Source of the DNA: Candidatus Iainarchaeum sp.
GTDB taxonomy: Archaea; Iainarchaeota; Iainarchaeia; Iainarchaeales; JACQJH01
Direction: 5' to 3'
Length of the DNA: 64,000 nt
Assembly (NCBI GenBank): GCA_016205145.1
Contig: JACQJH010000001.1
Location: 451,501 to 515,500 of the forward strand
Below the pieces are notes generated by a model. That model searched no databases. It was not told the origin of the DNA and saw only the letters and a program-made list of their open reading frames with translations. This document shows positions 2,030-52,888 of this stretch, in pieces. Within the stretch, counting starts at the first letter, position 1. Each line of letters opens with the position of its first letter. Both the position numbers and the translations under genes were made by a program.

Positions 2030-2596
2030 ATGCGCATGGGCCTGACAAAACACGAAAGGAAACAGCTGAAAAAAACGGAACGGCTTGAAAGCGAAAGGAC
2101 CCTTGGCGAAAAAAAGCGGAAGGAAAATTTCCTGAAAAACGCGGGCATGGCAATCCTTGCAATCGCGGTTGTCGCGGCAATCGCCTTTTTTGCGTTGCAG
2201 GCAAATGCCAACAGGCCCAAACTGGACACGCGCGGCATTTCCTTTCCGTTGGTGAACGTGCACTGGCACGCCACGCCCCGCATTTTTTTGTGCGGCGGGG
2301 AAAAGTTGATTCCGACGCCGCCTGAAACAAATCCTTTGCTGCACACGCATGAGGACAGGCTCATCCACATCGAAGGCAGCGTTTCCGGGCCGGAGCAGAT
2401 AACCCTGGAAAGGTTTTTTGACGGCATCGGCATAAAGTTTTCTTCAACCGGAATCTGGGGCAAAAGGAACGGCGACACCTGCGAAAACACGGGCAAGGCG
2501 GGAAAGGTTTCAATGAAGGTCAACGGTTCCGCAAACACTGAGTTCCAGAATTTTGTGCCAAAGGACGGCGACGTGATAGAAATTCGTTTTGAATAG
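2030..2596 (+). CDS. Membrane-anchored His-rich protein of unknown function (HWHATP...LLHTHED).
   Basis: One N-terminal TM helix. The extracytoplasmic domain carries clustered His residues. It sits inside the metal island. Confidence 0.4.
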   Translation: MRMGLTKHERKQLKKTERLESERTLGEKKRKENFLKNAGMAILAIAVVAAIAFFALQANANRPKLDTRGISFPLVNVHWHATPRIFLCGGEKLIPTPPETNPLLHTHEDRLIHIEGSVSGPEQITLERFFDGIGIKFSSTGIWGKRNGDTCENTGKAGKVSMKVNGSANTEFQNFVPKDGDVIEIRFE

Positions 2597-2606
2597 GCGT
2601 TGTGAC

Positions 2607-2801
2607 ATGAATAAAGTGAAACAAACCGCGTTGTTCACCTGCCCGGAATGCGGCGCAAAATCGGAAATAGCGGTTCCAACCGGCAGGTGCCTTGCCTTTC
2701 ACGAATGCGTGGCATGCCATAAAATCATCGCGGCAAAAAAATCCTGTTGCGTCATCTGCGACTACTCCGACAAGAAGTGCCCTGTTTCAGCAAAACACTG
2801 A
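2607..2801 (+). CDS. Small Cys-rich (about 10 Cys in 65 aa) zinc-ribbon-like metal-binding protein.
   Basis: The pattern is CPECG...CLAFHECVACH...CCVICDYSDKKCP. ATG is at 2607. The ORF-track TTG start at 2589 overlaps the upstream stop. Confidence 0.4.
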   Translation: MNKVKQTALFTCPECGAKSEIAVPTGRCLAFHECVACHKIIAAKKSCCVICDYSDKKCPVSAKH

Positions 2802-2864
2802 CTGGCCGCACTTTTGATTGTTTGGCTTTTTTTTGGCGCTCAGGGGCTGTTCCGCTTTTTCCAC

Positions 2865-2911
2865 ATGGTTTCAACAACGGTTATCTATGGTTTCAGCCGC
2901 ATTGTTTGCAT
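2865..2911 (+). promoter_or_regulatory. Conserved 47-nt promoter/operator motif, copy 1: GGTTTCA-n12-TATGGTTTCAGC-n7-TTTGCAT.
   Basis: It is nearly identical to 9181-9227. It contains a TATA-like TAT.TATGG and lies 42 nt upstream of the GGAGG-preceded ATG at 2953. Confidence 0.5.
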
Positions 2912-2952
2912 CAGAGCCTGATTCAGGCAATGTTTTTGCGGAGGAGACGGAA

Positions 2953-3630
2953 ATGCAGGGTTGTTGCGGGGAAGGGCACAAGTCCGGTTCCCATAAGTCT
3001 GGTTCGGCTGGCCAGCAAGCGGAATTCAAAACCAGTGCCGGCGGCAAAAAGCTGGGTTTTGGAAAAACCGCATTGACTGTGGTTTTGGCCTTGGCTGTTG
3101 TAGCAGGACTGCTGTTTTTCCTTCGCCCCGGCTCGACTGGACAGGTGTCCGCAACCGCGACGGGCAATACTGTCGGTGCTGTGGCGCCGGGTTTTGAGTT
3201 GAAGGACATTGCCGGAAACAGCGTGAAGCTGAGCGATTTCAAGGGCAGGGCTGTCATACTTTTTTTCAACGAGGGCGGAATGTGCTATCCTTCGTGCTGG
3301 AACCAGATAAAGGCTCTGGCAACGGATGAAAGGCTTAACAACGAAAACGTGGCGTCTTTCTCCGTGGTGGTTGACAACACTTCGGACTGGGAGAAAATCA
3401 CGGCTCACGTGCCCGGCTTTTCGCAGTCGGGCCTGCTCTTCGACACTTCAAAGGTTGTTTCGTCAAGTTACGGGGCGCTGAACATGCCGTCTTCGATGCA
3501 TGGCGGCATGATGCCGGGGCACACATATTATATCATCGGAAAGGACGGCAAAATAAAGTTCATTTTCGACGACCCGCAGATGGGCGTGAGGAACGACCTG
3601 CTTGCCGCTGAAATAGCAAAGCTGGTTTGA
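2953..3630 (+). CDS. Membrane-anchored thioredoxin-like (TlpA/redoxin family) protein with an N-terminal Cys/His-rich tail (MQGCCGEGHKSGSHKSGS).
   Basis: The active-site-like motif is GGMCYPSCW. There is a TM segment TALTVVLALAVVAGLLFF and a strong GGAGGAG RBS. The in-frame ATG at 2887 lies inside the conserved motif, so it was rejected as a start. Confidence 0.65.
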   Translation: MQGCCGEGHKSGSHKSGSAGQQAEFKTSAGGKKLGFGKTALTVVLALAVVAGLLFFLRPGSTGQVSATATGNTVGAVAPGFELKDIAGNSVKLSDFKGRAVILFFNEGGMCYPSCWNQIKALATDERLNNENVASFSVVVDNTSDWEKITAHVPGFSQSGLLFDTSKVVSSSYGALNMPSSMHGGMMPGHTYYIIGKDGKIKFIFDDPQMGVRNDLLAAEIAKLV

Positions 3631-3655
3631 CGGCTGGATTGTTTTTGGTGGTGGC

Positions 3656-4534
3656 GTGGGCGAACTGCTTTTAGGCGCGTCAATAATAACCGCTTTTGTG
3701 GCGGGAGTCGCGGCATTGTTCGCGCCGTGCTGCATTACCGTGCTCTTGCCCGCCTACCTCGGCTCGGTTTTCAGGCAGATGCGCACGGTTTTCCTCATGA
3801 CTTTCGTTTTCTTCCTGGGCCTGCTCGCGGTTTTCCTGCCGCTCGGCCTCGGCTTCGCGGCGCTCGGCGAAGCGTTCAGGCAGTTTCACGACGTCATTTT
3901 CGTCGGCGGAAGCGTTTTCCTCATAGTGCTTGGCGCCTCGATGCTTTTGGGAAAGCACTTTTCAATGCCATTTGCACCGCGCCCGTCTCCAAAAGTTACT
4001 GGTGCGGTTTCGGTTTTCGCGCTCGGCGTGTTCTCCGGCATAGCGACGCTTTGCTGTGCGCCCGTGCTTGCCGGAGTGCTGGCGCTTTCGATAATGCCGG
4101 GTTCGGTTTTCTGGGGCGGAGTCTACTCGCTGGCTTACGTGCTTGGCATGACGATTCCGTTGTTCGTAATTGCCTTCGCGCTTGACAAGTCGGATGCCCT
4201 TGAAAAAATCCGGCTGCTCAACAGGACCGTCGAATACGGCTTCGGCGGAGAAAAAATCAGCCTGCTTGCATCCGAAATGGTTGCAGCGTTGATGTTCATC
4301 GGAATGGGCTTGCTGACGATTTACTTTTTCATGACCGGGCAGCTTGCACAAAATTCCGGCTTCCAGGTTTCCACGAACGTGATGCTTGCAGGAGTGGCGG
4401 ATTTTGCCTCGAAGTATTTTTCGTGGGCACCGCCGGTTGCATTGGCGGGCGCGGTTGCGCTGATTTTGGCCGGCCTGGCGTTCATTGCCTTCAAAGAGAA
4501 GCATGGCCGGGGAAACGAAAAAAGGGAATCCTGA
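3656..4534 (+). CDS. ccdA: CcdA/DsbD-family transmembrane thiol-disulfide electron transporter.
   Basis: It has PCC and LCCAP motifs in TM helices (FAPCCITVLLPAYLG; IATLCCAPVLAG) and is polytopic. It has a GTG start. Confidence 0.8.
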   Translation: MGELLLGASIITAFVAGVAALFAPCCITVLLPAYLGSVFRQMRTVFLMTFVFFLGLLAVFLPLGLGFAALGEAFRQFHDVIFVGGSVFLIVLGASMLLGKHFSMPFAPRPSPKVTGAVSVFALGVFSGIATLCCAPVLAGVLALSIMPGSVFWGGVYSLAYVLGMTIPLFVIAFALDKSDALEKIRLLNRTVEYGFGGEKISLLASEMVAALMFIGMGLLTIYFFMTGQLAQNSGFQVSTNVMLAGVADFASKYFSWAPPVALAGAVALILAGLAFIAFKEKHGRGNEKRES

Positions 4535-4598
4535 TGGGAGGGATGAAAACGTGATTGCAAAAATAATCGAAAGCGCAAAGCGCAACCATCTCGCGCAG

Positions 4599-4760
4599 AT
4601 GGCAATCTGCTGCCTCTTGCCGGTGCTGCTGATAATCGCGTTGCAGCTTTTGGGTTACACGGGTTTCTGGGTTTATGCCCTGGCCCTCGCTTTGTGCATC
4701 GGCTCGCACATTGCAATGGCGGCTATTGGCGCGAAAAAAGAGGGGCAGTCATGCCATTAG
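4599..4760 (+). CDS. Small two-TM membrane protein with a CC pair (MAICCLLPVLL...).
   Basis: It is a short hydrophobic ORF in the island. The start is ambiguous between GTG 4551 and ATG 4599. Confidence 0.3.
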   Translation: MAICCLLPVLLIIALQLLGYTGFWVYALALALCIGSHIAMAAIGAKKEGQSCH

Positions 4761-4964
4761 ACTTAGGAAAGCACCGCGGCTGGCTGGAAAACGCCTTCTG
4801 GCTTCTCGTGCTCGCAGTCGCATACATTGCAATGCAAAAAGCAATGCATCCCGGCTGGACGGTTTTCGGAATCTGAATCCGCCGGGTGTATTTAGCCTGA
4901 TTTGGAAAAACTAATATAAATGCCGCTGCGCATCCATTAAAAACGCAGGAGGGCGGGATTAATC

Positions 4965-6689
4965 ATGGCGGGATTTGATGGCAGGACTGTCATTGGCTTG
5001 GCTTTGGTGGCCGTAATCGTGTTTGGGGCGGCGTTTTACATTGGCACATCCGGAAATTCCGGAATGCGTTCAGAGACGCGGCCGGCCGGAAGCGCGGCCG
5101 GGCAAACGGGCGCGGCATTCCCTTCCGGTGAATTGTCCGCCGGCGACAGGGCCATGATGGAGCACTGCAAGTCCATGCCGCAAATGCCGGGGTGCGAAAA
5201 ATTCGCCGGTCAGGAAGCCGCCGCAAATGGCGGTGCGGGTGCAAACGCCGGTTACTCTGATTCAGTTGCCGGGCTTTCCGCGGCAGGCGGAACCGCGGTT
5301 TATGATGCGAAAGACGGCGGAAAAATAACCCTGTCAGCGTCGGCCGTCAAAAAAACCGTTGCCGGCACGGAAGTCAGGATGCTTGCATACAACGGCCAGA
5401 TTCCGGGACCCACGATAAGAGTGAAACAGGGAAGCTCTCTGGAAGTGGAATTCATAAACGGCCTTGACTCCGAAACGACTGTGCACTGGCACGGCGTGAG
5501 AGTAAAAAACGATTTTGACGGCGTTCCGGGCGTGACGCAAAAGCCGGTCAAGCCCGGGGAAAAGTTTGTCTACCCGCTGGAGTTTCCGGACGAGGGCATA
5601 TACTGGTATCATCCGCACATGAGAGAGGACTACCAGCAGGAGCTCGGGCTTTACGGCAACATCATCGTCGAGCCGTCCGATGAAGGCTCTTACAACAAGG
5701 TCAACCGCGAAATGACGCTTGCGCTTGACGACATTCTGATGGAAGGCAATGGCATTGCCGCGTTCTCCGCCGATTTTGCGACGCATTCCCTGATGGGAAG
5801 GTTCGGGAACGTGATGCTGGTCAACGGCAGTGACAAATTTGAAATGGCCGCGCTGAAAGGCGAAACTGTGAGGTTTTTCGTCACGAATGCCGCGAACGCA
5901 AGGACATTCAACTTGGTTTTCGGGGGATTGAAGTTGAAGGTTGTCGGCGCGGACAGCGGAAAGTATGAAAAAGAATTTTTCGCGGACTCGGTTGTGGTGG
6001 CGCCGTCGGAAAGGTACGTTGTGGAAGTGCTGTTTGACGGGGAGGGAACATACAACATCCTCAATTCGACGCCTGAAGGAAAAACGGTTCTCGGCAAAAT
6101 AGCCGTGTCGGGCCGGCAGGCGGAAGAGGATTATTCCAAGGAGTTTTTTGAAACAATGGAAAATTCCCGGGTTGCTGACAGCATTTCCGGCATGAGGCGG
6201 TATTTTGACAAGCCCGCGGACCATGAAATAAGAATCGGCGTGGACCTGATGGGCATGAGTCATGGCAGCATGGCGATGGCTCAGGGAACCGGCGGCATCG
6301 AGTGGGAGGACGAAATGCCGCAAATGAACCTGGCCATGAACAGCAGGATAATGGAATGGCAGTTCATTGACGTGAAAACCGGGAAAAAGAACGAGGGCAT
6401 AAGCTATGAGTGGAAAAAAGGCGACAAAATCAAGTTGAGGATTTTCAACGACCCGGATTCCGCGCACCCCATGCAGCACCCGATCCATTTGCACGGCCAA
6501 AGGTTCCTGGCCATAAGCAGTGACGGGGTGGAAAGCGAAAACCTGGCGTGGAAGGACACGGTTCTGGTCCCGTCGGGTTCCACGGCGGACATTCTTGTGG
6601 ATGTCTCGAATCCCGGAAAATGGATGCTGCACTGCCATGTCCCGGAACACATGGAAAGCGGAATGCACACGACGGTAAACGTAATATGA
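4965..6689 (+). CDS. Multicopper oxidase (laccase/CueO-like), membrane-anchored or secreted.
   Basis: The copper-ligand motifs HWHG, HPIHLHG and HCHVPEHMESGMH are present. It has an N-terminal TM/signal and a GGAGGG RBS. Confidence 0.9.
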   Translation: MAGFDGRTVIGLALVAVIVFGAAFYIGTSGNSGMRSETRPAGSAAGQTGAAFPSGELSAGDRAMMEHCKSMPQMPGCEKFAGQEAAANGGAGANAGYSDSVAGLSAAGGTAVYDAKDGGKITLSASAVKKTVAGTEVRMLAYNGQIPGPTIRVKQGSSLEVEFINGLDSETTVHWHGVRVKNDFDGVPGVTQKPVKPGEKFVYPLEFPDEGIYWYHPHMREDYQQELGLYGNIIVEPSDEGSYNKVNREMTLALDDILMEGNGIAAFSADFATHSLMGRFGNVMLVNGSDKFEMAALKGETVRFFVTNAANARTFNLVFGGLKLKVVGADSGKYEKEFFADSVVVAPSERYVVEVLFDGEGTYNILNSTPEGKTVLGKIAVSGRQAEEDYSKEFFETMENSRVADSISGMRRYFDKPADHEIRIGVDLMGMSHGSMAMAQGTGGIEWEDEMPQMNLAMNSRIMEWQFIDVKTGKKNEGISYEWKKGDKIKLRIFNDPDSAHPMQHPIHLHGQRFLAISSDGVESENLAWKDTVLVPSGSTADILVDVSNPGKWMLHCHVPEHMESGMHTTVNVI

Positions 6690-6746
6690 GCGGCTGCCCG
6701 GAACCGGTTTTAATAACTGCGTTGCGGATTCATTCCGTGGCATAAA

Positions 6747-7217
6747 ATGCGAAAATGGTGGCAAGTGGACAAAAAAATAAAATTCCTGTTGGTTGGGGCG
6801 GGGCTTTCAATTCTGCTTTTCATAATCATGGGAACGCCCACGGCCCTCGTGCCCAACCCATTCATTCACTACAAGAGGATGGTTGCCGCGGCATGGTTGG
6901 ACTATTTTTTTCTCGCCTCAACCTCGATAATGCTTGCGGCATTGATTTCGCTGAAACTGTATTTCAGGTCGGGGCGCGGCCTCGGCGCAAAAGAAATCGG
7001 CGGGGGCGCGCTGGGCTTTCTTGCGTTCAGCTGCCCGATTTGCAATGCTCTTCTCGTGGCTTTGCTCGGCGGCGCGACGATAATGGCGTTCGTGGAGCCG
7101 TTGAGGCCGCTGTTTGGAGTCGTGTCGATTGCGATTTTGGGTTGGCTTATTTATGGCGCGCTGAAATGCGGGGGATGCAATGGCGCCGCAGGCCGGCACG
7201 GCATGAAAATTAATTAA
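6747..7217 (+). CDS. CxxC membrane protein, paralog 2 (FSCPICNALLVALLGG; C-terminal CGGCNG).
   Basis: Same architecture as 1466-2017. Confidence 0.45.
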   Translation: MRKWWQVDKKIKFLLVGAGLSILLFIIMGTPTALVPNPFIHYKRMVAAAWLDYFFLASTSIMLAALISLKLYFRSGRGLGAKEIGGGALGFLAFSCPICNALLVALLGGATIMAFVEPLRPLFGVVSIAILGWLIYGALKCGGCNGAAGRHGMKIN

Positions 7218-7247
7218 TCTGCTTGCATTTACATACAATCTGTTGCG

Positions 7248-7955
7248 GTGCTTGGAATGGCGTTTCCTTTGAACCCCTGGCTTTTCGGCTCGGCCGCCCT
7301 GCTGTTGTTGTGGCTGGCCATATGGCTTTTCAGGCCCGCTTTGCGCAGGGAAATGCTTTTGGTCAGCCTTTTCACCGCGCCTTTGGGTCTGACGGAACCG
7401 CTTTTTGTGCCCGAATACTGGACTCCGCCTTCGCTGTTCAACCTTGCCGCCACAACGGGCTTTGACATTGAAAGCATAGTCTTCTGCTTTGCCGCCGGGG
7501 GAATAGCGGCGGTCATCTACGAAATCCTGGTGAAATCGAGGCACAGTGAAATGTCCATGAATGAAATGCGTTCTAAACGGCACAGGTTCCACAAAATCGC
7601 GCTCGCCTCTCCCGCAATCGTTTTCGTGCCCCTGTACCTTTTTTCCGGCCTGAACCCGATATATGTTTCAATAATTGCGCTGTTTGCCGGCGCAATGGCG
7701 ACTGTCGTGTGCAGGCCGGATTTGAAGAAACCGGTCTTAACCGGAGGAACAGTATTTTTGCTCATCTATTTCTTTTTCTTCCTGTTTTTGAGCGTGGCAT
7801 TCCCGGATTTTGTGCCGAACGCGTGGAATTTTTCGGCCATCAGCGGCATTCTTGTTTTCGGCGTCCCTTTTGAGGAGCTGCTGTTCGCGCTTTCCTTTGG
7901 AATGGCGTGGGCGGGCCTTTACGAGCATTTTTTCTGGAAAAAACTGGTTCGTTAG
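7248..7955 (+). CDS. Polytopic membrane protein. It may be lycopene-cyclase-domain-like, based on PxEE-type motifs (GVPFEELLF).
   Basis: Seven or more hydrophobic helices and a PFEELLF motif. The family assignment is tentative. Confidence 0.35.
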   Translation: MLGMAFPLNPWLFGSAALLLLWLAIWLFRPALRREMLLVSLFTAPLGLTEPLFVPEYWTPPSLFNLAATTGFDIESIVFCFAAGGIAAVIYEILVKSRHSEMSMNEMRSKRHRFHKIALASPAIVFVPLYLFSGLNPIYVSIIALFAGAMATVVCRPDLKKPVLTGGTVFLLIYFFFFLFLSVAFPDFVPNAWNFSAISGILVFGVPFEELLFALSFGMAWAGLYEHFFWKKLVR

Positions 7956-7985: not shown

Positions 7986-8411
7986 TCAGTGCGCGCCGCC
8001 GCCCTTGAAAGTCCGCGCGCAGTGCCTGCAGCAGAATTTCAGGGTTTTTCCGTTTATTTTTTCCGTGTGGCCGCCTTCATAGACCATGCAGGCGCAGTGC
8101 GCGCACTGCGAAAGCTTCGGTTCCACGGCAAGGTCTATGAGGCCGCCGAACCTGTGCAGCATCGACTTGCAGAACGCCTTGCCTTCCGGCGTCAGAGCGT
8201 AAACCTTTTTTTCCCTCGCGCCCTCTGATTTGACCCGGATGTATTTTGCCTTTTCAAGTTTTGCGAGGAAAGGGTAGATCTGGCCGGGTGAAACCCTGCT
8301 TTCGAGCCTTTCGCTTATCTCCTTTATGAGCTCGTAGCCGTGCCTGGGGCCGTCGCACAGAAGAAGCATGCAATAGAATTTGGCCATGTTTGTGATCCTG
8401 ATTTCTTTCAT
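7986..8411 (-). CDS. PadR-family winged-helix regulator fused to a C-terminal TRASH metal-sensing domain. It is a candidate copper-responsive regulator.
   Basis: The N-terminus LCDGPRHGYELIKEI...GQIYPFLAKLE is a PadR signature. The C-terminus CAHC-x20-CCRHC fits the TRASH pattern C-x2-C-x19-22-C-x3-C. Confidence 0.7.
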   Translation of the reverse strand: MKEIRITNMAKFYCMLLLCDGPRHGYELIKEISERLESRVSPGQIYPFLAKLEKAKYIRVKSEGAREKKVYALTPEGKAFCKSMLHRFGGLIDLAVEPKLSQCAHCACMVYEGGHTEKINGKTLKFCCRHCARTFKGGGAH

Positions 8412-8453
8412 TGCGGTCAGGCGGATTTATCTGGGAAAACGTTTAAATATTTA

Positions 8454-8474
8454 TATATCTAAATTTGATATATC
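8454..8474. promoter_or_regulatory. Divergent promoter region with ATATATC-n7-GATATAT(C). It holds two copies of the self-complementary GATATATC-like element, between the PadR-TRASH gene and the Met-rich protein gene.
   Basis: Sequence TTATATATCTAAATTTGATATATC. These are TATA-like boxes for divergent transcription and/or an operator. Confidence 0.35.
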
Positions 8475-8542: not shown

Positions 8543-9130
8543 ATGGTGGAAAAATCGGGTTTGCTGGCATTGGTTGTATTGGCGGGTTTAATCGCGTTGC
8601 CTGTTGCAATGGCGCAGGGTTCGGATGATTTTGCGCAGGCGAAGGCGCTGATCGACAGGAATGCGTCCTGCGGCAGCCTGAGCAGCGAACAGCTTGAACT
8701 GATCGGCGATTATGTGATGGAGCAGATCCATCCCGGCGAAGCCCACGAATATGTGGAATCGATGATGGGCGGCGAGGGCTCGGATAGCCTGAAACGGGCG
8801 CACATTGCCATGGCTTACAGGTTCTACTGTGCAGGCTTAGGTTCTGGGTTGAACGCAAACAGCCCGTATTATGGCGTAATGGGCGGCTATGGGATGATGG
8901 GTGGCATGATGTACGGCAACTATGGCGGGATGATGGGTTCTGGCAATGCCTATTCCACTTATGGGCTTATGGGATACGGCGGCGGAACCGCAAATTATCC
9001 TGGAATGATGGGCTATAATGCGTCAACCGGCGGCCTTGGCCTGCTTACGCAGGTCTTGTTTGTGGTGGCGCTTGGTCTCGCAGTTCTGTTCCTTGGCATT
9101 AAAGTCTTCGGGCAATTTCAAAAGCGGTGA
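8543..9130 (+). CDS. Secreted Met/Gly/Tyr-rich protein with a signal peptide and a C-terminal TM anchor. It is a putative periplasmic copper-binding protein.
   Basis: Signal peptide LLALVVLAGLIALPVAMAQG. The central region is MGGYGMMGGMMYGNYGGMMGSGNAYSTYGLMGYGG. The C-terminal TM is LFVVALGLAVLFLGI. Confidence 0.55.
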   Translation: MVEKSGLLALVVLAGLIALPVAMAQGSDDFAQAKALIDRNASCGSLSSEQLELIGDYVMEQIHPGEAHEYVESMMGGEGSDSLKRAHIAMAYRFYCAGLGSGLNANSPYYGVMGGYGMMGGMMYGNYGGMMGSGNAYSTYGLMGYGGGTANYPGMMGYNASTGGLGLLTQVLFVVALGLAVLFLGIKVFGQFQKR

Positions 9131-9180
9131 TTGAGGATTTGGGGTTGAATGTCCTGCGGGTTGTATGCCGGCCCGGAACA

Positions 9181-9227
9181 AAAGGTTTCAGCAATGCCTA
9201 TTTATGGTTTCAGCAGGAATATTTGCA
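9181..9227 (+). promoter_or_regulatory. Conserved 47-nt promoter/operator motif, copy 2, upstream of the cupredoxin-copZ-copA operon.
   Basis: AAGGTTTCAGCAATGCCTATTTATGGTTTCAGCAGGAATATTTGCAT aligns with 2865-2911. Confidence 0.5.
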
Positions 9228-9296
9228 TAGTTGTGTTTTTTTGCATCCGGTCTTTTTTATGAATTTTATGGGTGAAGGCTCTAAAGTGGTGGTCAG

Positions 9297-9728
9297 ATGA
9301 ATGAGGTTAAAGTCCAGCGTGTTTTCCTGTTGCTTGTGTTAGGCGCCCTGGTCGTGTTCGGCGGAATGGTTCTGTTTTGGTTTGGCGCTAATGCAGCGCC
9401 CGCCAGATCGGCATCGGTAAATAATCAGGGTATTGTTGCCGGAGGGAACGGCCAGGCACAGGACATTTACATCAGGGCGCTTTCAAGCGGAACCTATGAC
9501 AAAAGCGAGGTCACGGTAAAGAAAGGCGTGCCGGTCAGACTGCATTTTTCCGCTGACCCTGGCGCGGGCTGCGGAAGGTATCTGGTGCTATACGGCCTGA
9601 ACGTCAATGCGCTTTCCAAGAACGGCGAAGAAGCGGTTGTCGACTTCACGCCGCAACAGGAAGGCAGCTTTGAATACAATTGCGGTATGAGAATGTTCAA
9701 ACCCGGAACATTGAAGGTTTTGGCATGA
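9297..9728 (+). CDS. Cupredoxin-like copper-binding domain protein with an N-terminal TM anchor.
   Basis: The beta-rich domain has Cu-ligand-like residues HFSADPGAGCGRY...YNCGMRMFKPG in a Cys...Cys-x-Met arrangement. Confidence 0.55.
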   Translation: MNEVKVQRVFLLLVLGALVVFGGMVLFWFGANAAPARSASVNNQGIVAGGNGQAQDIYIRALSSGTYDKSEVTVKKGVPVRLHFSADPGAGCGRYLVLYGLNVNALSKNGEEAVVDFTPQQEGSFEYNCGMRMFKPGTLKVLA

Positions 9729-10201
9729 GCAGGCTTGAAGCTTTGGCCTTGGTGTTGTCGGAGCGCAGTCAGCTCGCAATATTTCTTGCGGCGTTTGCCG
9801 TGCTTTTGCCTTTGCTGGCAGTCAGCTCGGCAATAATTTCGCCGGTGGGTTTTGCGTTCAATCCTTTGGCTGAACCGCTTGGAATCGCTTTGACAATCGT
9901 CATTGCAATCCTGATGGGCCTGAACCTGACGGTCCTGTTGCATGCCCACGCACGCAATGCAAATGCAAAAAAGGGGACTGTCCTGTTCGGCGGCCTGGCG
10001 GCAACGTTTGCCACTGCCTGCCCTGTTTGCCCGCCGACATGGATTGTCCTGCTCGGCTTCGGCTCGGCCGCGGGCTTTCTTTCTGGAACCGGGATTTTCA
10101 TTGCAATTGGCAGCATAGTCTTGCTTTCATTGGCTCTTTACAATTCTTTGGGTTGCGCAGACGGAAACTGCGGGGTGGACAAGAATGGAAAAAATGATTA
10201 A
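9725..10201 (+). CDS. CxxC membrane protein, paralog 3 (ATACPVCPPTW; C-terminal CADGNCG).
   Basis: Its ATG overlaps the upstream stop (ATGA). Same architecture as 1466 and 6747. Confidence 0.45.
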   Translation: MSRLEALALVLSERSQLAIFLAAFAVLLPLLAVSSAIISPVGFAFNPLAEPLGIALTIVIAILMGLNLTVLLHAHARNANAKKGTVLFGGLAATFATACPVCPPTWIVLLGFGSAAGFLSGTGIFIAIGSIVLLSLALYNSLGCADGNCGVDKNGKND

Positions 10202-10388
10202 AGTGAAAGGCATGCATTGTAAGTCATGCGAAATCCTTGTCGCGGACTCCGTGTCTGAAATCAGCGGCGTGGAAAGCGTCAAGGCGGACAGCAGGAAGGG
10301 AACTGTTGTGGTGAATGTCCGGGATGCCGGGATTCTCGGCAGGGTGAAAGCCGCGATTGAAAAGGAAGGCTACAAGGTGGAAAACTGA
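10185..10388 (+). CDS. copZ: Copper chaperone CopZ (single HMA domain).
   Basis: The GMHCKSCE motif is the MxCxxC of an HMA domain. The protein is 67 aa. Confidence 0.8.
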   Translation: MEKMIKVKGMHCKSCEILVADSVSEISGVESVKADSRKGTVVVNVRDAGILGRVKAAIEKEGYKVEN

Positions 10389-11308
10389 TGGAATTCGAAC
10401 TTGAACTTGGCGGAATGTCCTGCGGCTCATGCGAGCGCATAATCGAAAAGGTTGCCGAGAAAGCCGGCGCGGAAGTCAAGGAAATCGACTCGCGCAAAGG
10501 CAGGGTCACAATCGTTTCCGAGGAATCCAAAATAGCCGGAATAAGGGAAGAGCTTGCCAAGCGCGGCTTTGCCGAAAAGGGCAGCAGGGAAGACGTGGGC
10601 AGGGGCGACCTGAAAAACGTTGTTGGCTACATTTTGGCAGTGCTGTCAATCCAGCCGCACGTCGAAGAGGAAGCCAGGCTCGTCAACCACGCCATTGCGT
10701 CCGCGATTATTTTGGCTGGGCTGAACATTCTGGCTTACCTGTTTTTTGTGCAGGGCCTGGAGAACGGCGAAAAGTACCTTCCATTCCTTGCATTGGCGAT
10801 TGTTGCGTCAATAACATCCGTTTTCGCGTACCTTCACGCCAAATGCTACCGTAAAATCATGTCCTGCCAGAACGGCATGATGGTCGGAATGACCATGGGC
10901 ATGGTTCCGGGCTTCATGGTCGGCGCAATCATTGCCGCGACAAACGGAATGTTTCTTGGCAGCGTGGCCGGAATTCTGACCGGCGCATGGCTTGGCCTGA
11001 AGAGCGGAAAATGCTGCGGCGTAATGGGCGCAATGGAAGGAGTCATGGCCGGCCTGATGTCCGGTTTGATGGGGCCGATGACAGTGATCATGACCCTCAA
11101 CGACAACATGCTCGTTCTGCTTTACCTGATTTTCGGAATCTCTGTTTTTTTGCTCGGCGGCCTGAGCTACATGCTGTACCGCGAGGAAGGCGAAACCCCG
11201 GTTGCGAACACAAAGCTGCCGGAATTCATTGTTCTCGGCATTGCGTTCAATCTTGTGCTGCTGGCGATAATGCTTTTTGCGGTTAAGGGGCCATTGAGGT
11301 TCGTGTGA
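10388..11308 (+). CDS. Fusion of an N-terminal HMA domain to a polytopic Met-rich membrane domain. It is a candidate Cu(I) channel or permease.
   Basis: The N-terminus carries GMSCGSCE. The membrane part is [19 protein letters not shown]...[24 protein letters not shown]. Confidence 0.55.
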
Positions 11309-11318
11309 GGGCGATGGC

Positions 11319-13775
11319 ATGAAAAAAATCACAGTCGGCATTAAAGGCATGCATTGCGCTTCCTGCGCCACGATAATCGAGCGTCGCCTCAAAAAAGTTG
11401 AAGGCGTGAAGGATGTCTCTGTCAGCGTCGCGGCAAACAGGGCGGCGATCGAATTTGATGAGGGCATTGCGGGCATTGAACAGTTTGGAAAGGCAGTGGA
11501 AAGTGCAGGGTACGAACTCGTCCAGCCGCAGGGGCAGGATTCCGGCGATGCGAAGATAACAATGCATGTAAAGGGCATGGATTCGCCGCATTGTGCGGGC
11601 ATTGTCGGGAATGCGCTCAAGGGAACCGCTGGAGTGAAAAAATTCGACCTCAGCTTCCAGAATGCCTCGGCAATGGTTGAATTCGATGCCTCCATCACCG
11701 GCTTTGATAAAATAAAGGCTTCGATTGCAAGGGCAGGCTATGATGCGGAACTGCTTGTCGGGGAGGAAACAGTGGACCAGGAGAAGGCCGCACGCGATAA
11801 AGAAATCGCGGAATTGAAGCGCAGGCTCGTTTTTTCGGCATTGCTGACCGTGCCGGTTGTCCTGCTTGCATTGCCGGAAATGCTGAAAACTGTTATGGCA
11901 TTCGAGTACCCGCAGTTCATAATGCAGAACATGGCTGCATTGCAATTGCTGTTTTCAACGCCGGTGATGTACCTTAACAGGGACATGTTTGTGAGGGGCT
12001 TCAGGGGGCTGTTGAATAACATGCCGGGCATGGACAGCCTTGTCGCTTTGGGCGTCGGGACAACCTATGCTTACAGCGCAATCGTGGCCCTGCGCATCAT
12101 TGGCGGAGTCATGTATTTTGAAACCGCTGCTTTGCTTCTCACGTTCATATTGCTTGGCAGGTACCTTGAGGCGATTGCCAAAGGAAAGACTTCCGAGGCA
12201 ATCAAGCGCCTTGTAGGGCTTGCGCCGAAAACCGCAATCGTGGTCAGGGCAGGAAAAGAGGTTGAAATTCCGATCAAGGAAGTTGTTGTCGGGGACATTG
12301 TCATTGTGAAGCCGGGCAGCAAGATTCCGGTTGACGGCGTCATAGTCGAAGGCGAAAGCAGCATTGACGAGAGCATGATTACAGGGGAGAGCATGCCCGT
12401 GCACAAGCGAAAAAATGACATTGTGATCGGCGGGACAATCAACGGCAATGGCTCTTTCAGGTTCAGGGCGACAAAAATCGGCAAGGACACAATGCTTGCG
12501 CAGATAATCCGTTTGGTGGAGGACGCGCAGGCAAGCAAGGCGCCGATCCAGAAGCTTGCAGACACTGTCGCAGGCTATTTTGTGCACGCAGTAATAGTGC
12601 TTGCATTGCTTGCCTTCGCTTACTGGTATTTCGTGGCAGGCCAGCCGTTTCTTTTCGCGCTCACAATCCTTGTTTCAACGCTTGTGATTTCCTGTCCTTG
12701 CGCAATGGGCCTTGCAACCCCGACAGCGGTCATGATTGGAACCGGCAAGGGCGCCGAGAACGGCGTGCTCATAAAAAACGCGGAGAGCCTTGAAATCCTG
12801 CATCAGGCCAAAACCTTTGTGTTCGACAAGACCGGCACAATCACCATGGGAAAGGCGTCGGTAACGGAAATCGTTCCGGTCGGAATCAAGGCAGCCGACC
12901 TTCTTTGCCTTGCGGCTTCCGCGGAAAAGAATTCCGAGCATCATTTAGCGCAGGCAATCGTGAAAAAGGCGAAGGAATCGAGGCTGAAAATTGCAGAACC
13001 GAAATCTTTCAAGGCGATTCCGGGGCATGGCGTCGAGGCAAAAGTCGGGGCGAAGAATGTTCTCATCGGAACTGTTGTCCTGATGAAAAAAAGCGGGGTC
13101 CGGATCGGAAACGATTTGGTTGGCAGGATGCAGTCGCTTGAAGAGCAGGGAAAAAGCGTTGTCCTTGTTTCGTCGGACGGAAAGCTTGTGGGAATGGTTG
13201 CGATTGCCGACACCATAAAAGAGCATGCTGCCGAGGCTGTAAGGCAATTGCAGGCAATGGGTTATGAAACCGTCATGATAACCGGCGACAATTCCCGCAC
13301 TGCAAACGCGATTGCAAAGCAGGCAGGCATTTCAAGGGTGCTGGCGCAGGTGCTTCCGTCGGACAAGGCCGCGGAAGTCAAGAAATTGCAGTTGAACGGA
13401 AGAAAGGTTGCCTTTGTCGGCGACGGCATAAACGATGCCCCGGCCTTGGCGCAGGCCGACATTGGAATCGCGATTGGCAGCGGCACCGACGTTGCGATTG
13501 AAAGCGGCGGAATAGTTTTGGTGAAAAGCGATTTGCGCGACATTGTGACGGCGGTAAAGCTTAGCAAATACACTCTCGGCAAAATAAAGCAGAATCTGTT
13601 CTGGGCTTTCGGCTACAATGCGGTCGGCATTCCGCTCGCGGCAGGCGCATTCTATCCTTTCACCGGCTGGCTTTTGTCGCCGGTCATAGCCGGAGCGGCA
13701 ATGGCTTTCAGCTCGGTAAGCGTTGTTTCGAACAGCCTGCTCATGCGCGGATGGAAACCGGATAAAAAGGTTTGA
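11319..13775 (+). CDS. copA: Copper-translocating P1B-type ATPase CopA with two N-terminal HMA domains.
   Basis: It has GMHCASCA and GMDSPHCA motifs, an [14 protein letters not shown] motif, DKTGTIT, and GDGINDAP. Confidence 0.92.
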
Positions 13776-34662: not shown

Positions 34663-34790
34663 CACGCGCTTTCGATCGCGTGTGCCGAAACCAAGGCGTA
34701 TCACTGTCGTGATACGCCGGGTAAGCAAAAACGCGCTTTCAGCGGGACCGAAACCAAGGCGTACCGATGCTGCAGTTAACCGCGCGGGCT
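34663..34790 (+). repeat. Conserved tRNA-trailer structured module (copy A, with a degenerate second repeat): hairpin + GCCGAAACCAAGGCG + hairpin + CGCCGGGTAAGC.
   Basis: The same module with compensatory stem changes follows tRNA-Ser(UGA) and tRNA-Ser(GGA), and occurs at 51366. Confidence 0.5.
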
Positions 34791-51411: not shown

Positions 51412-51531
51412 AGTACTCCTGACCCTCCCCCGAAATTCCTGATTTTTTCCCACAAAAACCATTAAAAAACTCCCTGACCAAGAATAGTTCAAGGCACCGG
51501 AATCAAAGTGCCAAAAAGCCACCATCAAATT

Positions 51532-51735
51532 GCGGGGGTGGCGGAGCGGTCTAACGCGCCAGCCTTGAGAAACCTTTTTCTTTCTTGAGAAGAAAGAAAA
51601 AGCTTCAATGCAAAATCAAAGATTTTGCATGCATCAAAAATTTGATTTTTGATGTACCAAAAAGAAAGAACCGTTCTTTGTTTCAGGCAAGCTGGTATCC
51701 GAAAGGATGCGCGAGTTCGAATCTCGTCCCCCGCG
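51532..51735 (+). tRNA. tRNA-Ser (anticodon UGA), class II, with an approximately 120-nt intron in the anticodon loop.
   Basis: Exons give a GCGGGGG/CCCCCGC acceptor, a 3-bp D-stem with an 11-nt loop, anticodon stem CCAGC/GCTGG, loop CUUGAG|A, a long variable arm, TTCGAAT, and G73. The intron is 51570-51689. Confidence 0.75.
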
Positions 51736-51736
51736 A

Positions 51737-51800
51737 GCACGCAGTTTCGGCTGCGTGGAGCGAAACTAAGGCGGTTCACACTGTGAACCGCCGAGTAAGC
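51737..51800 (+). repeat. tRNA-trailer module copy C.
   Basis: Hairpin CACGCAG-TTTCGG-CTGCGTG, then GAGCGAAACTAAGGCG, a hairpin, and CGCCGAGTAAGC. Confidence 0.5.
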
Positions 51801-52442: not shown

Positions 52443-52640
52443 ACCAAGCCTGCCCCTCTTTTTTTATTCTTTATTTAACAGCTTTTGGTATGTTAGGATA
52501 AGCCGCCGGGCGGCAGAGGCATTGAGCTTTTGCGAAATGCCTCAACATCGCACGTTGGCGACGAAAACGCGCTGAAAGCGCGTAGGGCTATGCGAGTGAA
52601 ACGAGCATAGTGCGTCGCACCAGACGGGCGATGACGTCTT

Positions 52641-52824
52641 GCGGGGGTGGCGGAGTGGTCTAACGCGCCAGCCTGGAACTGCCCTTTCTTTTCTTTGAAA
52701 AAGAAAAGAAAGTGCAAGGTGCCCAAAGAAAAGAAAACGGGCCATTGCCCGGAAAAGGCGCTTTGCAAGGCACCAACAAGCTGGTTTCCGCAAGGAAGCG
52801 CGAGTTCGAATCTCGTCCCCCGCG
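52641..52824 (+). tRNA. tRNA-Ser (anticodon GGA), class II, with an approximately 100-nt intron.
   Basis: The exons are near-identical to the tRNA-Ser(UGA) exons. The anticodon loop is CUGGAA|A. The intron is 52679-52778. Confidence 0.75.
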
Positions 52825-52888
52825 TGCCGCTTTCGGGCGGCAGTGCCGAAACCAAGGCGTATTGCTAATCGCAATACGCCGAGTAGGC
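52825..52888 (+). repeat. tRNA-trailer module copy D.
   Basis: Hairpin TGCCGC-TTTCGG-GCGGCA, then GTGCCGAAACCAAGGCG, a hairpin, and CGCCGAGTAGGC. Confidence 0.5.

Follow-up and report, generated by a model that had tools for sequence, protein, structure and literature searches.

Background

CopR/CopT regulators, which combine an Lrp-type helix-turn-helix domain with a TRASH domain, have been described in Sulfolobus, Thermococcus and Pyrococcus furiosus (PMC7830388). Their operator, through which a copA/copZ regulon is controlled, sits on the archaeal core promoter beside the BRE, their gene is typically divergent from copA, and their phased contacts are spaced by about one helical turn (PMC7830388); in P. 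furiosus the CopR motif activates copA transcription in vitro (PMC7830388). The regulon, the operator placement, the divergent gene and the phased contacts have a counterpart in the promoter element described here, which we call motif A and which occurs twice in a 64-kb stretch of DNA (hereafter the window, meaning that stretch in its whole length). The protein and the layout of the sites differ. CopR is a soluble cytoplasmic octamer that senses copper via TRASH, whereas the candidate regulator proposed here has a DUF7343 winged helix and is anchored in the membrane by two helices. The CopR motif TTNNCAWWWTGNNAA is a semi-palindrome directly 5' of the BRE (PMC7830388), whereas in motif A ATGGTTTCA repeats flank the TATA box, 22 bp apart. 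The CopR motif has no match in the window.

A second group for comparison is formed by the transmembrane regulators ToxR, CadC and TcpP of bacteria and ArnR/ArnR1 of Sulfolobus, one-component proteins in which, as in the candidate, a DNA-binding domain is joined to a membrane anchor and to a part that senses outside the cytoplasm, and which regulate promoters from their place in the membrane (PMC10269533; PMC6396743). In the characterised members, among them ToxR, CadC and ArnR, the DNA-binding domain is N-terminal and the membrane segment or segments follow; in the DUF7343 protein the order is reversed, with an N-terminal two-helix hairpin, a short Cys/His loop and a C-terminal winged helix-turn-helix (wHTH). 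Moreover, the known archaeal transmembrane regulators control motility and pili, not metal or thiol stress.

The gene content of the locus recalls bacterial envelope responses to copper stress, Scs in Salmonella and Dsb/Cpx/Cus in E. coli, which depend on the two-component regulators CpxAR and CusRS and on sigma-70 promoters. In these responses copper export is co-regulated with thioredoxin-, DsbD- and DsbA-like envelope oxidoreductases, as it is here, but the candidate in the present case is a single membrane-anchored wHTH protein and not a two-component system. The bacterial regulators CopY with its cop box, CueR and CsoR likewise exert copper-responsive control of copA/copZ through promoter-overlapping operators; they belong to different protein families, work with different promoter machinery and sense cytoplasmic copper. 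The CopY cop box TACANNTGTA has no match in the window. Finally, the operator of B. subtilis PadR is the inverted repeat ATGT-N8-ACAT. A PadR-type regulator is encoded 770 nt from the second copy of motif A, and a palindromic operator (motif B, below) overlaps its own promoter as in PadR repressors, whereas motif A is a direct repeat of different sequence which tracks a DUF7343 gene and not padR.

Motif A and the copper operon

The window is archaeal, most likely derived from Iainarchaeota (DPANN), as indicated by an intron-containing tRNA (110-nt intron) and by its archaeal relatives; the proteins most closely related to its regulator and CopA come from Iainarchaeota/Diapherotrites and other DPANN archaea. 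In an archaeal organism the logic of a promoter is that of BRE, TATA box and TBP/TFB, and the A/T-rich octamer enclosed by the two heptamers of motif A is therefore read as a TATA box. The copy upstream of the copper operon (copy 2; window 9179-9228, CAAAAGGTTTCAGCAATGCCTATTTATGGTTTCAGCAGGAATATTTGCAT) and the genes behind it, supported by Pfam matches and by independent gene calls on identical Logan contigs, are laid out as follows.

9184-9190, plus strand: site 1, a GGTTTCA heptamer, immediately 5' of the BRE-like position
9191-9205, plus strand: core promoter between the sites, with a BRE-like AA at 9193-9194 and the TATA-like box CTATTTAT at 9198-9205
9204-9212, plus strand: site 2, ATGGTTTCA (heptamer 9206-9212), abutting the TATA box, with TAT at 9203-9205
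9225-9227, plus strand: predicted transcription start region, GCA, about 25 nt 3' of the TATA centre
9297-13775, plus strand: operon after copy 2 (Pfam matches, gene calls)
9297-9728, plus strand: cupredoxin (Pfam)
9725-10201, plus strand: 158-aa protein (gene call)
10185-10388, plus strand: CopZ/HMA (Pfam)
10388-11308, plus strand: 306-aa protein with a weak HMA match (Pfam)
11319-13775, plus strand: CopA P1B-ATPase (Pfam)

The core of copy 2 is thus GGTTTCA-N15-GGTTTCA at 9184-9212, two direct heptamers 22 bp apart from start to start, with TAT before the second and a TATA-like octamer and BRE-like AA enclosed. Site 2 falls between the TATA box and the predicted start site. Since 22 bp is close to two helical turns, the two ATGGTTTCA sites that bracket the BRE-like and TATA elements would lie on the same face of the DNA. 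On both strands of the window the pattern GGTTTCA-N15-GGTTTCA is found twice, as against 0.00047 occurrences expected from base composition, and both occurrences are intergenic and on the plus strand. The second of them (copy 1; window 2862-2911, CACATGGTTTCAACAACGGTTATCTATGGTTTCAGCCGCATTGTTTGCAT) belongs with copy 2 to the repeat-finder family D16, with 78% identity over 50 nt (9179-9228 against 2862-2911), and TTTGCAT stands about 12 nt after the second GGTTTCA in both copies. A scan of the window with a position weight matrix (PWM) trained on six instances returned no third copy; copy 2 had the highest score among all instances scanned (49.2) and copy 1 scored 45.4. Copy 1 also precedes an operon on its own strand:

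2867-2895, plus strand: motif A copy 1, with GGTTTCA at 2867-2873, TTATCTAT at 2881-2888 and GGTTTCA at 2889-2895
2953-7955, plus strand: operon after copy 1 (Pfam matches, gene calls)
2953-3630, plus strand: AhpC/TSA-redoxin (Pfam)
3656-4534, plus strand: DsbD_TM (Pfam), followed by small ORFs
4965-6689, plus strand: multicopper oxidase (Pfam), followed by a 156-aa protein
7248-7955, plus strand: lycopene-cyclase-domain protein (Pfam)

The initial annotation had seen in 9181-9227 the second copy of a shared regulatory motif of the cupredoxin-copZ-copA operon, 70 nt upstream of a tightly packed five-gene plus-strand operon ending in copA. Its coordinates prove right to within a few bases. The distance is indeed 70 nt, counted from the end of motif A copy 2 to the ATG at 9297, and the packing is confirmed by overlaps of 4, 17 and 1 nt and a single gap of 10 nt. 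The claim of a shared motif is borne out much more widely, as the same bipartite motif, spacing and TATA-like centre recur in 80 non-redundant instances (next section). The existence of motif A as a conserved regulatory site, and its role as such, are near certain. From the gene content of the downstream operon, which is devoted to copper handling, the promoter would be expected to respond to copper.

Some further features of the two promoters were observed. An ATG within ATGGTTTCA is in frame with the downstream ORFs in several loci (window 2887-2952; L001, about 12449-12390; L002, about 7134-7100), so that automatic gene calls begin inside the operator. For the redoxin the Logan call has 247 aa (window 2887-3630); the ATG at 2953, with GGAGG 8 nt upstream, is the likelier start. 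The gene directly 5' of copy 1 (window 2589-2801) encodes a Cys-rich GDCCVxC-domain protein (NCBIfam NF041374), and in L001 and L002 the corresponding position beside the motif is held by the DUF7343 regulator gene.

Elsewhere in the window there are two paralogous tRNA-like genes with long introns (51530-51738 and 52639-52827), one of which is reported by Rfam and neither by ARAGORN. A conserved sequence of about 35 nt with GCCGAAACCAAGGCG stands directly 3' of three tRNA genes (34667-34701, 51742-51776 and 52828-52862).

Motif A in other genomes and metagenomes

Among 80 genome loci fetched for relatives of the PadR-TRASH protein (10 query sequences), motif A is perfect in four from Iainarchaeota (L001, L002, L005 and L006), with a spacer of varying sequence, and a degenerate copy precedes the cupredoxin operon of L001. 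Metagenomes were scanned with one 19-base pattern, GGTTTCANNAANNNNNNNNTATGGTTTCA, which yielded 81 loci and 80 non-redundant motif A instances; the site 1 heptamer of these instances is fixed by the pattern. Positions that the pattern leaves free are nonetheless far from random. Before site 1 there is A in 60 and T in 50 of 78 instances, the centre (+14 to +18) reads A-T-A-T-(A/G) in 39 to 63 of 78, and after site 2 there is G in 51 and C in 47 of 78. This argues that most scan matches are true members of one class and not chance hits. Conservation is weak at +42 to +44, where C-A-G occurs in 33 to 39 of 78. Site 1 is often extended to a full palindrome, TGAAACC-AT-GGTTTCA, which fits the expectation for a winged-helix dimer. 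The heptamers hold their 22-bp spacing across contigs of 26-62% G+C and across several phyla, and the distance to the start codon varies widely. The closest of the fetched loci to the window itself was L138 (about 75% identity over 199 nt), with none at 90% nucleotide identity or above.

The genes downstream of motif A in these loci encode CopA/HMA proteins (23), DsbA (12), CopZ (9), DsbD-like proteins (7) and cupredoxin (4), and in 17 loci a Cys-rich family with a PDMVGGC tail. Many of the first genes that match no family encode Cys-rich secreted or membrane proteins, or rhodanese-like ones. With respect to the tailed proteins, those of unknown family 3' of motif A share a C-terminal VPDMVGGC (or QVGGC) and have no Pfam match, and some carry an internal CEYCCG...CGCAH motif. 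Genes with such tails are:

L001, 11667-12449 and 11405-11665, minus strand: VPDMVGGC/QVGGC-tail proteins
L002, 6370-7134 and 6111-6401: VPDMVGGC/QVGGC-tail proteins
L122, after 6246: VPDMVGGC/QVGGC-tail protein

A membrane-anchored DUF7343 protein as candidate regulator

Divergent from motif A in both L001 and L002 is a gene (in L001, from GW2011_AR10, at 12463-12966) whose product of about 167 aa has two N-terminal hydrophobic helices and a C-terminal winged helix, the latter matching Pfam DUF7343. Such a divergent DUF7343 gene accompanies 46 of the 67 non-redundant motif A instances for which 500 nt or more of upstream sequence was available, and its start lies 31-159 nt from the motif (median 77). 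In L005 the DUF7343 gene is inside the motif-driven operon. The 21 instances that have no divergent DUF7343 gene include secondary sites where the contig or locus encodes the regulator elsewhere, as in L001, a single locus with the regulator and further motif sites, and in L109 and L122, which lie on one 1.19-Mb contig. At such sites (L001; L109/L122) the element adjoins padR-TRASH, and the regulator sits at another nearby motif site.

The association was also examined in the reverse direction, independently of the motif, by a protein family search followed by the fetching of loci for seven members. Phased heptamers were present in the divergent intergenic region of all seven (L164, L165, L166, L167, L170, L172 and L173), in each case with TATGGTTTCA at their end, behind a TATA-like box; small differences are seen among the upstream heptamers (GGTTTCA, GGTTACA, GGTTTCG, AGTTTCA). 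Two of these loci, both from Micrarchaeota, face operons for HMA-DsbD/cupredoxin/CopA and for DsbA/HMA/DsbD/CopA. All named members of the DUF7343 family come from Diapherotrites, Micrarchaeota and Woesearchaeota and carry the labels "hypothetical" or "uncharacterized membrane protein", and our literature search returned no mention of DUF7343 and nothing relevant on DPANN copper regulation. Upstream of distant DUF7343-like homologues in five loci from Aenigmatarchaeota/Micrarchaeota (L012, L018, L037, L063 and L075) motif A was not recognisable.

The AlphaFold (AF2) model of the regulator (pLDDT 82.8) consists of a helix at residues 2-27, a loop with a small hairpin, a long helix at 50-100 and, at 104-162, a wHTH. 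Among solved folds it comes nearest, though weakly, to MarR/ArsR-type winged helices. By hydropathy, exactly two transmembrane segments are predicted in 44 of 51 homologues. Lys and Arg are enriched before the first and after the second segment (positive-inside), from which the loop is predicted to face outward, and 33 of the 51 homologues have C-x4-12-C-x-H-E in this loop. The homologues from the related loci thus have what defines a transmembrane regulator in the literature, a DNA-binding domain and at least one transmembrane segment (PMC10269533). Altogether, it is probable that the candidate DUF7343 protein is the binder of motif A.

The window itself has no DUF7343 gene divergent from motif A or within a motif-driven operon. 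Searches of its 64 kb by tblastn and with HMMs of three and of 51 sequences gave no significant homologue, the best hmmsearch match having E = 0.045. The window sequence is present in Logan runs SRR12113384 and SRR12113383, and the regulator was not located in that sample: the four Logan-sourced ones looked up among the seven homologues (P0041, P0059, P0045 and P0061) come from other runs. By analogy with L001 and L109/L122, where regulator and secondary motif sites are separated, we assume that the organism of the window has a DUF7343 gene as well.

The PadR-TRASH neighbour and a separate palindrome

Between the two copies of motif A lies the gene of a second potential regulator, with a palindrome of its own:

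7986-8411, minus strand: PadR-family winged-helix regulator with a C-terminal TRASH metal-binding domain (Pfam PF03551 and PF24273)
8453-8473: motif B, palindrome ATATATC-TAAATTT-GATATAT beside TTTAAATA, in the divergent promoter between padR-TRASH and a Gly/Met-rich gene (8543-9130)

The alignment of PadR-TRASH proteins has a conserved C-x2-C...CC-x2-C signature, and CopA is encoded within 3 kb of padR-TRASH in 55 of the 80 genome loci, a proximity which makes PadR-TRASH very probably a copper regulator. The palindrome TATATC-N5-8-GATATA, with at most one mismatch, is upstream of padR-TRASH in 57 of 78 loci, compared with 1.3% of random 150-mers. The loci that bear it belong to DPANN, Hadarchaeota and Bathyarchaeia, and a TTTAAA/TTTATA box adjoins the palindrome. 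Motif B, which has one perfect copy in the window and is absent from the cop promoter, is therefore taken to be the predicted PadR-TRASH operator. PadR-TRASH and its palindrome look like a widespread, undescribed pair of archaeal copper regulator and operator.

The protein encoded at 8543-9130 is rich in Gly, Met and Tyr, has a C-terminal membrane helix and GGMMG/YGGMMG repeats, and matches no family; its gene is conserved beside padR-TRASH in L001, L003 and L004. One possibility is an envelope protein, rich in methionine, that binds copper and is controlled by motif B. Very small Cys-rich ORFs, for example MVSMHSCCGG...GGCCGGQ and MCGACGGGGN, were also noticed between padR-TRASH and the Gly/Met-rich gene, just 3' of motif B, and may be metal-binding or leader peptides:

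L001, about 7800-7770, minus strand: small Cys-rich ORF
L003, about 4015-3905: small Cys-rich ORF
L004, about 5140-5030: small Cys-rich ORF

Transcription from the motif B promoter (about 8450) could also continue through the Gly/Met-rich gene into the cop operon, which would then have input from both sensors. Oligo-T is an archaeal termination signal, and a T7 and a T6 tract are found at window 9236-9242 and 9252-9257, 10-30 nt 3' of the predicted cop start site. These tracts might stop transcripts that run on from the Gly/Met-rich gene upstream, or act as attenuators of the cop transcript.

Proposed mechanism

According to these data, the reading that we favour, with a probability of about 0.65, is that 9184-9212 and 2867-2895 of the window are promoter-embedded operators of a DUF7343 transmembrane one-component regulator, whose repression is lifted by copper or thiol stress. 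The binder would be a protein with two N-terminal membrane helices, an outward loop with Cys-x(4-12)-Cys-x-His-Glu, a long cytoplasmic helix and the C-terminal DUF7343 winged helix. Its dimers would sit on site 1, beside the BRE, and on site 2, which overlaps the edge of the TATA box and the stretch from TATA to start, and sites so occupied would block the assembly of TBP, TFB and RNA polymerase. Copper, or a copper-driven oxidation of thiols outside the membrane, would alter the Cys/His loop, and the regulator would be released or remodelled. The regulon thus switched on would comprise copper export (CopA, CopZ, HMA proteins, cupredoxin and multicopper oxidase) and envelope thiol-disulfide repair (DsbA, DsbD/CcdA, redoxin and Cys-rich proteins). 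In the window it would consist of two promoters, and the cytoplasmic PadR-TRASH would work through its separate palindrome. We infer that the protein binds DNA and that it represses and does not activate, and likewise what it senses. Divergent adjacency of the DUF7343 gene would also fit a protein that simply belongs to the regulon of another factor.

A broader proposal is more tentative, and we give it somewhat less than even odds: that DPANN archaea (Iainarchaeota, Micrarchaeota and Woesearchaeota) use an undescribed membrane-tethered one-component regulator of this type, whose Cys...Cys-x-His-Glu loop would sense extracellular copper or copper-driven thiol oxidation and which would clamp the BRE/TATA region of a conserved regulon for copper export and disulfide repair.

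Alternative explanations

The most serious alternative keeps the DUF7343 protein as the binder and changes its action, making it an activator or a dual switch: site 1 would recruit TFB/TBP in response to copper, and site 2 would be released or repositioned. In archaea, activators classically sit just 5' of the BRE, and characterised bacterial transmembrane regulators such as ToxR and CadC are activators. Site 1 of motif A is directly 5' of the BRE-like AA, as is the CopR motif of P. furiosus (PMC7830388). It is site 2 that speaks for repression, because in the loci derived from the regulator it is better conserved than site 1, and it abuts the TATA box ahead of the predicted start site. The stretch between TATA box and start site is the typical position of archaeal repressors, namely MDR1, Phr and LrpA. 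We consider activation or dual switching unlikely, yet it is the alternative to be taken most seriously. Less probable still is a role of motif A as operator for the neighbouring cytoplasmic PadR-TRASH (7986-8411), in which case this regulator would act directly on the operons to either side. The position of its gene, between both copies of the motif and 770 nt from copy 2, is in favour of this, as are its occurrence near copA in 55 of 80 genome loci, the placement of motif A right beside padR in L005, L006 and L122, and the presence of TRASH, which is known to bind metal in archaeal copper regulators (PMC7830388). Nevertheless, PadR-TRASH has its own palindrome in 57 of 78 loci, including lineages where no motif A was seen, and in the window this palindrome occurs once, at 8453-8473, and not at the cop promoter. 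Motif A has no inverted repeat TATATC-N5-8-GATATA such as marks PadR/PadR-TRASH operators; motifs A and B have no common sequence. In addition, padR-TRASH is found in the fetched stretch of only about 8 of 80 motif A instances, compared with 46 of 67 for the DUF7343 gene. PadR-TRASH was rejected as the binder of motif A on the strength of its own palindrome, and it probably does not bind there.

Two further explanations dispense with a specific DNA-binding factor. The likeness of the copies might go back to a local duplication of recent date, or to nothing more than a strong core promoter common to both; in favour of this, the element has a BRE-like AA and a TATA-like box, and operons follow both copies. 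What is conserved is the reverse of that expectation, the heptamers being invariant and the TATA box variable (CTATTTAT, TTATCTAT, CTATATAT, ATAATTAT, ATATGTAT). Furthermore, the heptamers keep their 22-bp spacing across phyla and always before the same gene classes, and the remaining promoters of the window lack them, all of which makes this explanation very improbable. That the element acts at the RNA level, say as a riboswitch or structured 5' leader of the cop genes, fits its location upstream of the first gene, across a 70-nt gap. Of the readings considered it is the least credible. The repeats are direct and not inverted, the TATA box belongs to the conserved part, which precedes the predicted start site, and instances differ greatly in their distance to the start codon. 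The folding of 9179-9300 is no better than that of shuffled sequence (z = +0.75) and the element matches no Rfam family at the gathering threshold; on these two grounds the RNA element was discarded.

Significance

To our knowledge, almost nothing is known about gene regulation in DPANN archaea, very few of which have been cultivated. The present analysis supplies a precise operator, ATGGTTTCA-N13-ATGGTTTCA around the TATA box, and defines a regulon of copper efflux, envelope thiol-disulfide enzymes and several unknown Cys-rich families. It also puts forward a candidate regulator from a family labelled so far only as DUF7343 or "hypothetical", and a second regulator-operator pair, PadR-TRASH with TATATC-N7-GATATA, in many archaeal phyla. 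Recognition of the motif improves annotation as well, as the ATG in ATGGTTTCA misleads gene callers into extending ORFs.

In function the element resembles other promoter-embedded operators of metal regulons, and the protein can be placed, broadly, among the transmembrane one-component regulators (PMC10269533). It departs from the characterised systems in its reversed domain order and in having an uncharacterised DUF as DNA-binding domain. A membrane-tethered repressor that occupies the TATA box of an archaeal promoter would be a valuable model for transmembrane regulators that work with a eukaryote-like transcription apparatus. If the proposed mechanism is true, this regulator, together with the cytoplasmic PadR-TRASH and its separate palindrome, would form a two-compartment copper-sensing circuit, and it would be the first extracytoplasmic metal-sensing transcription factor, with the first defined regulon, in these largely uncultivated archaea.
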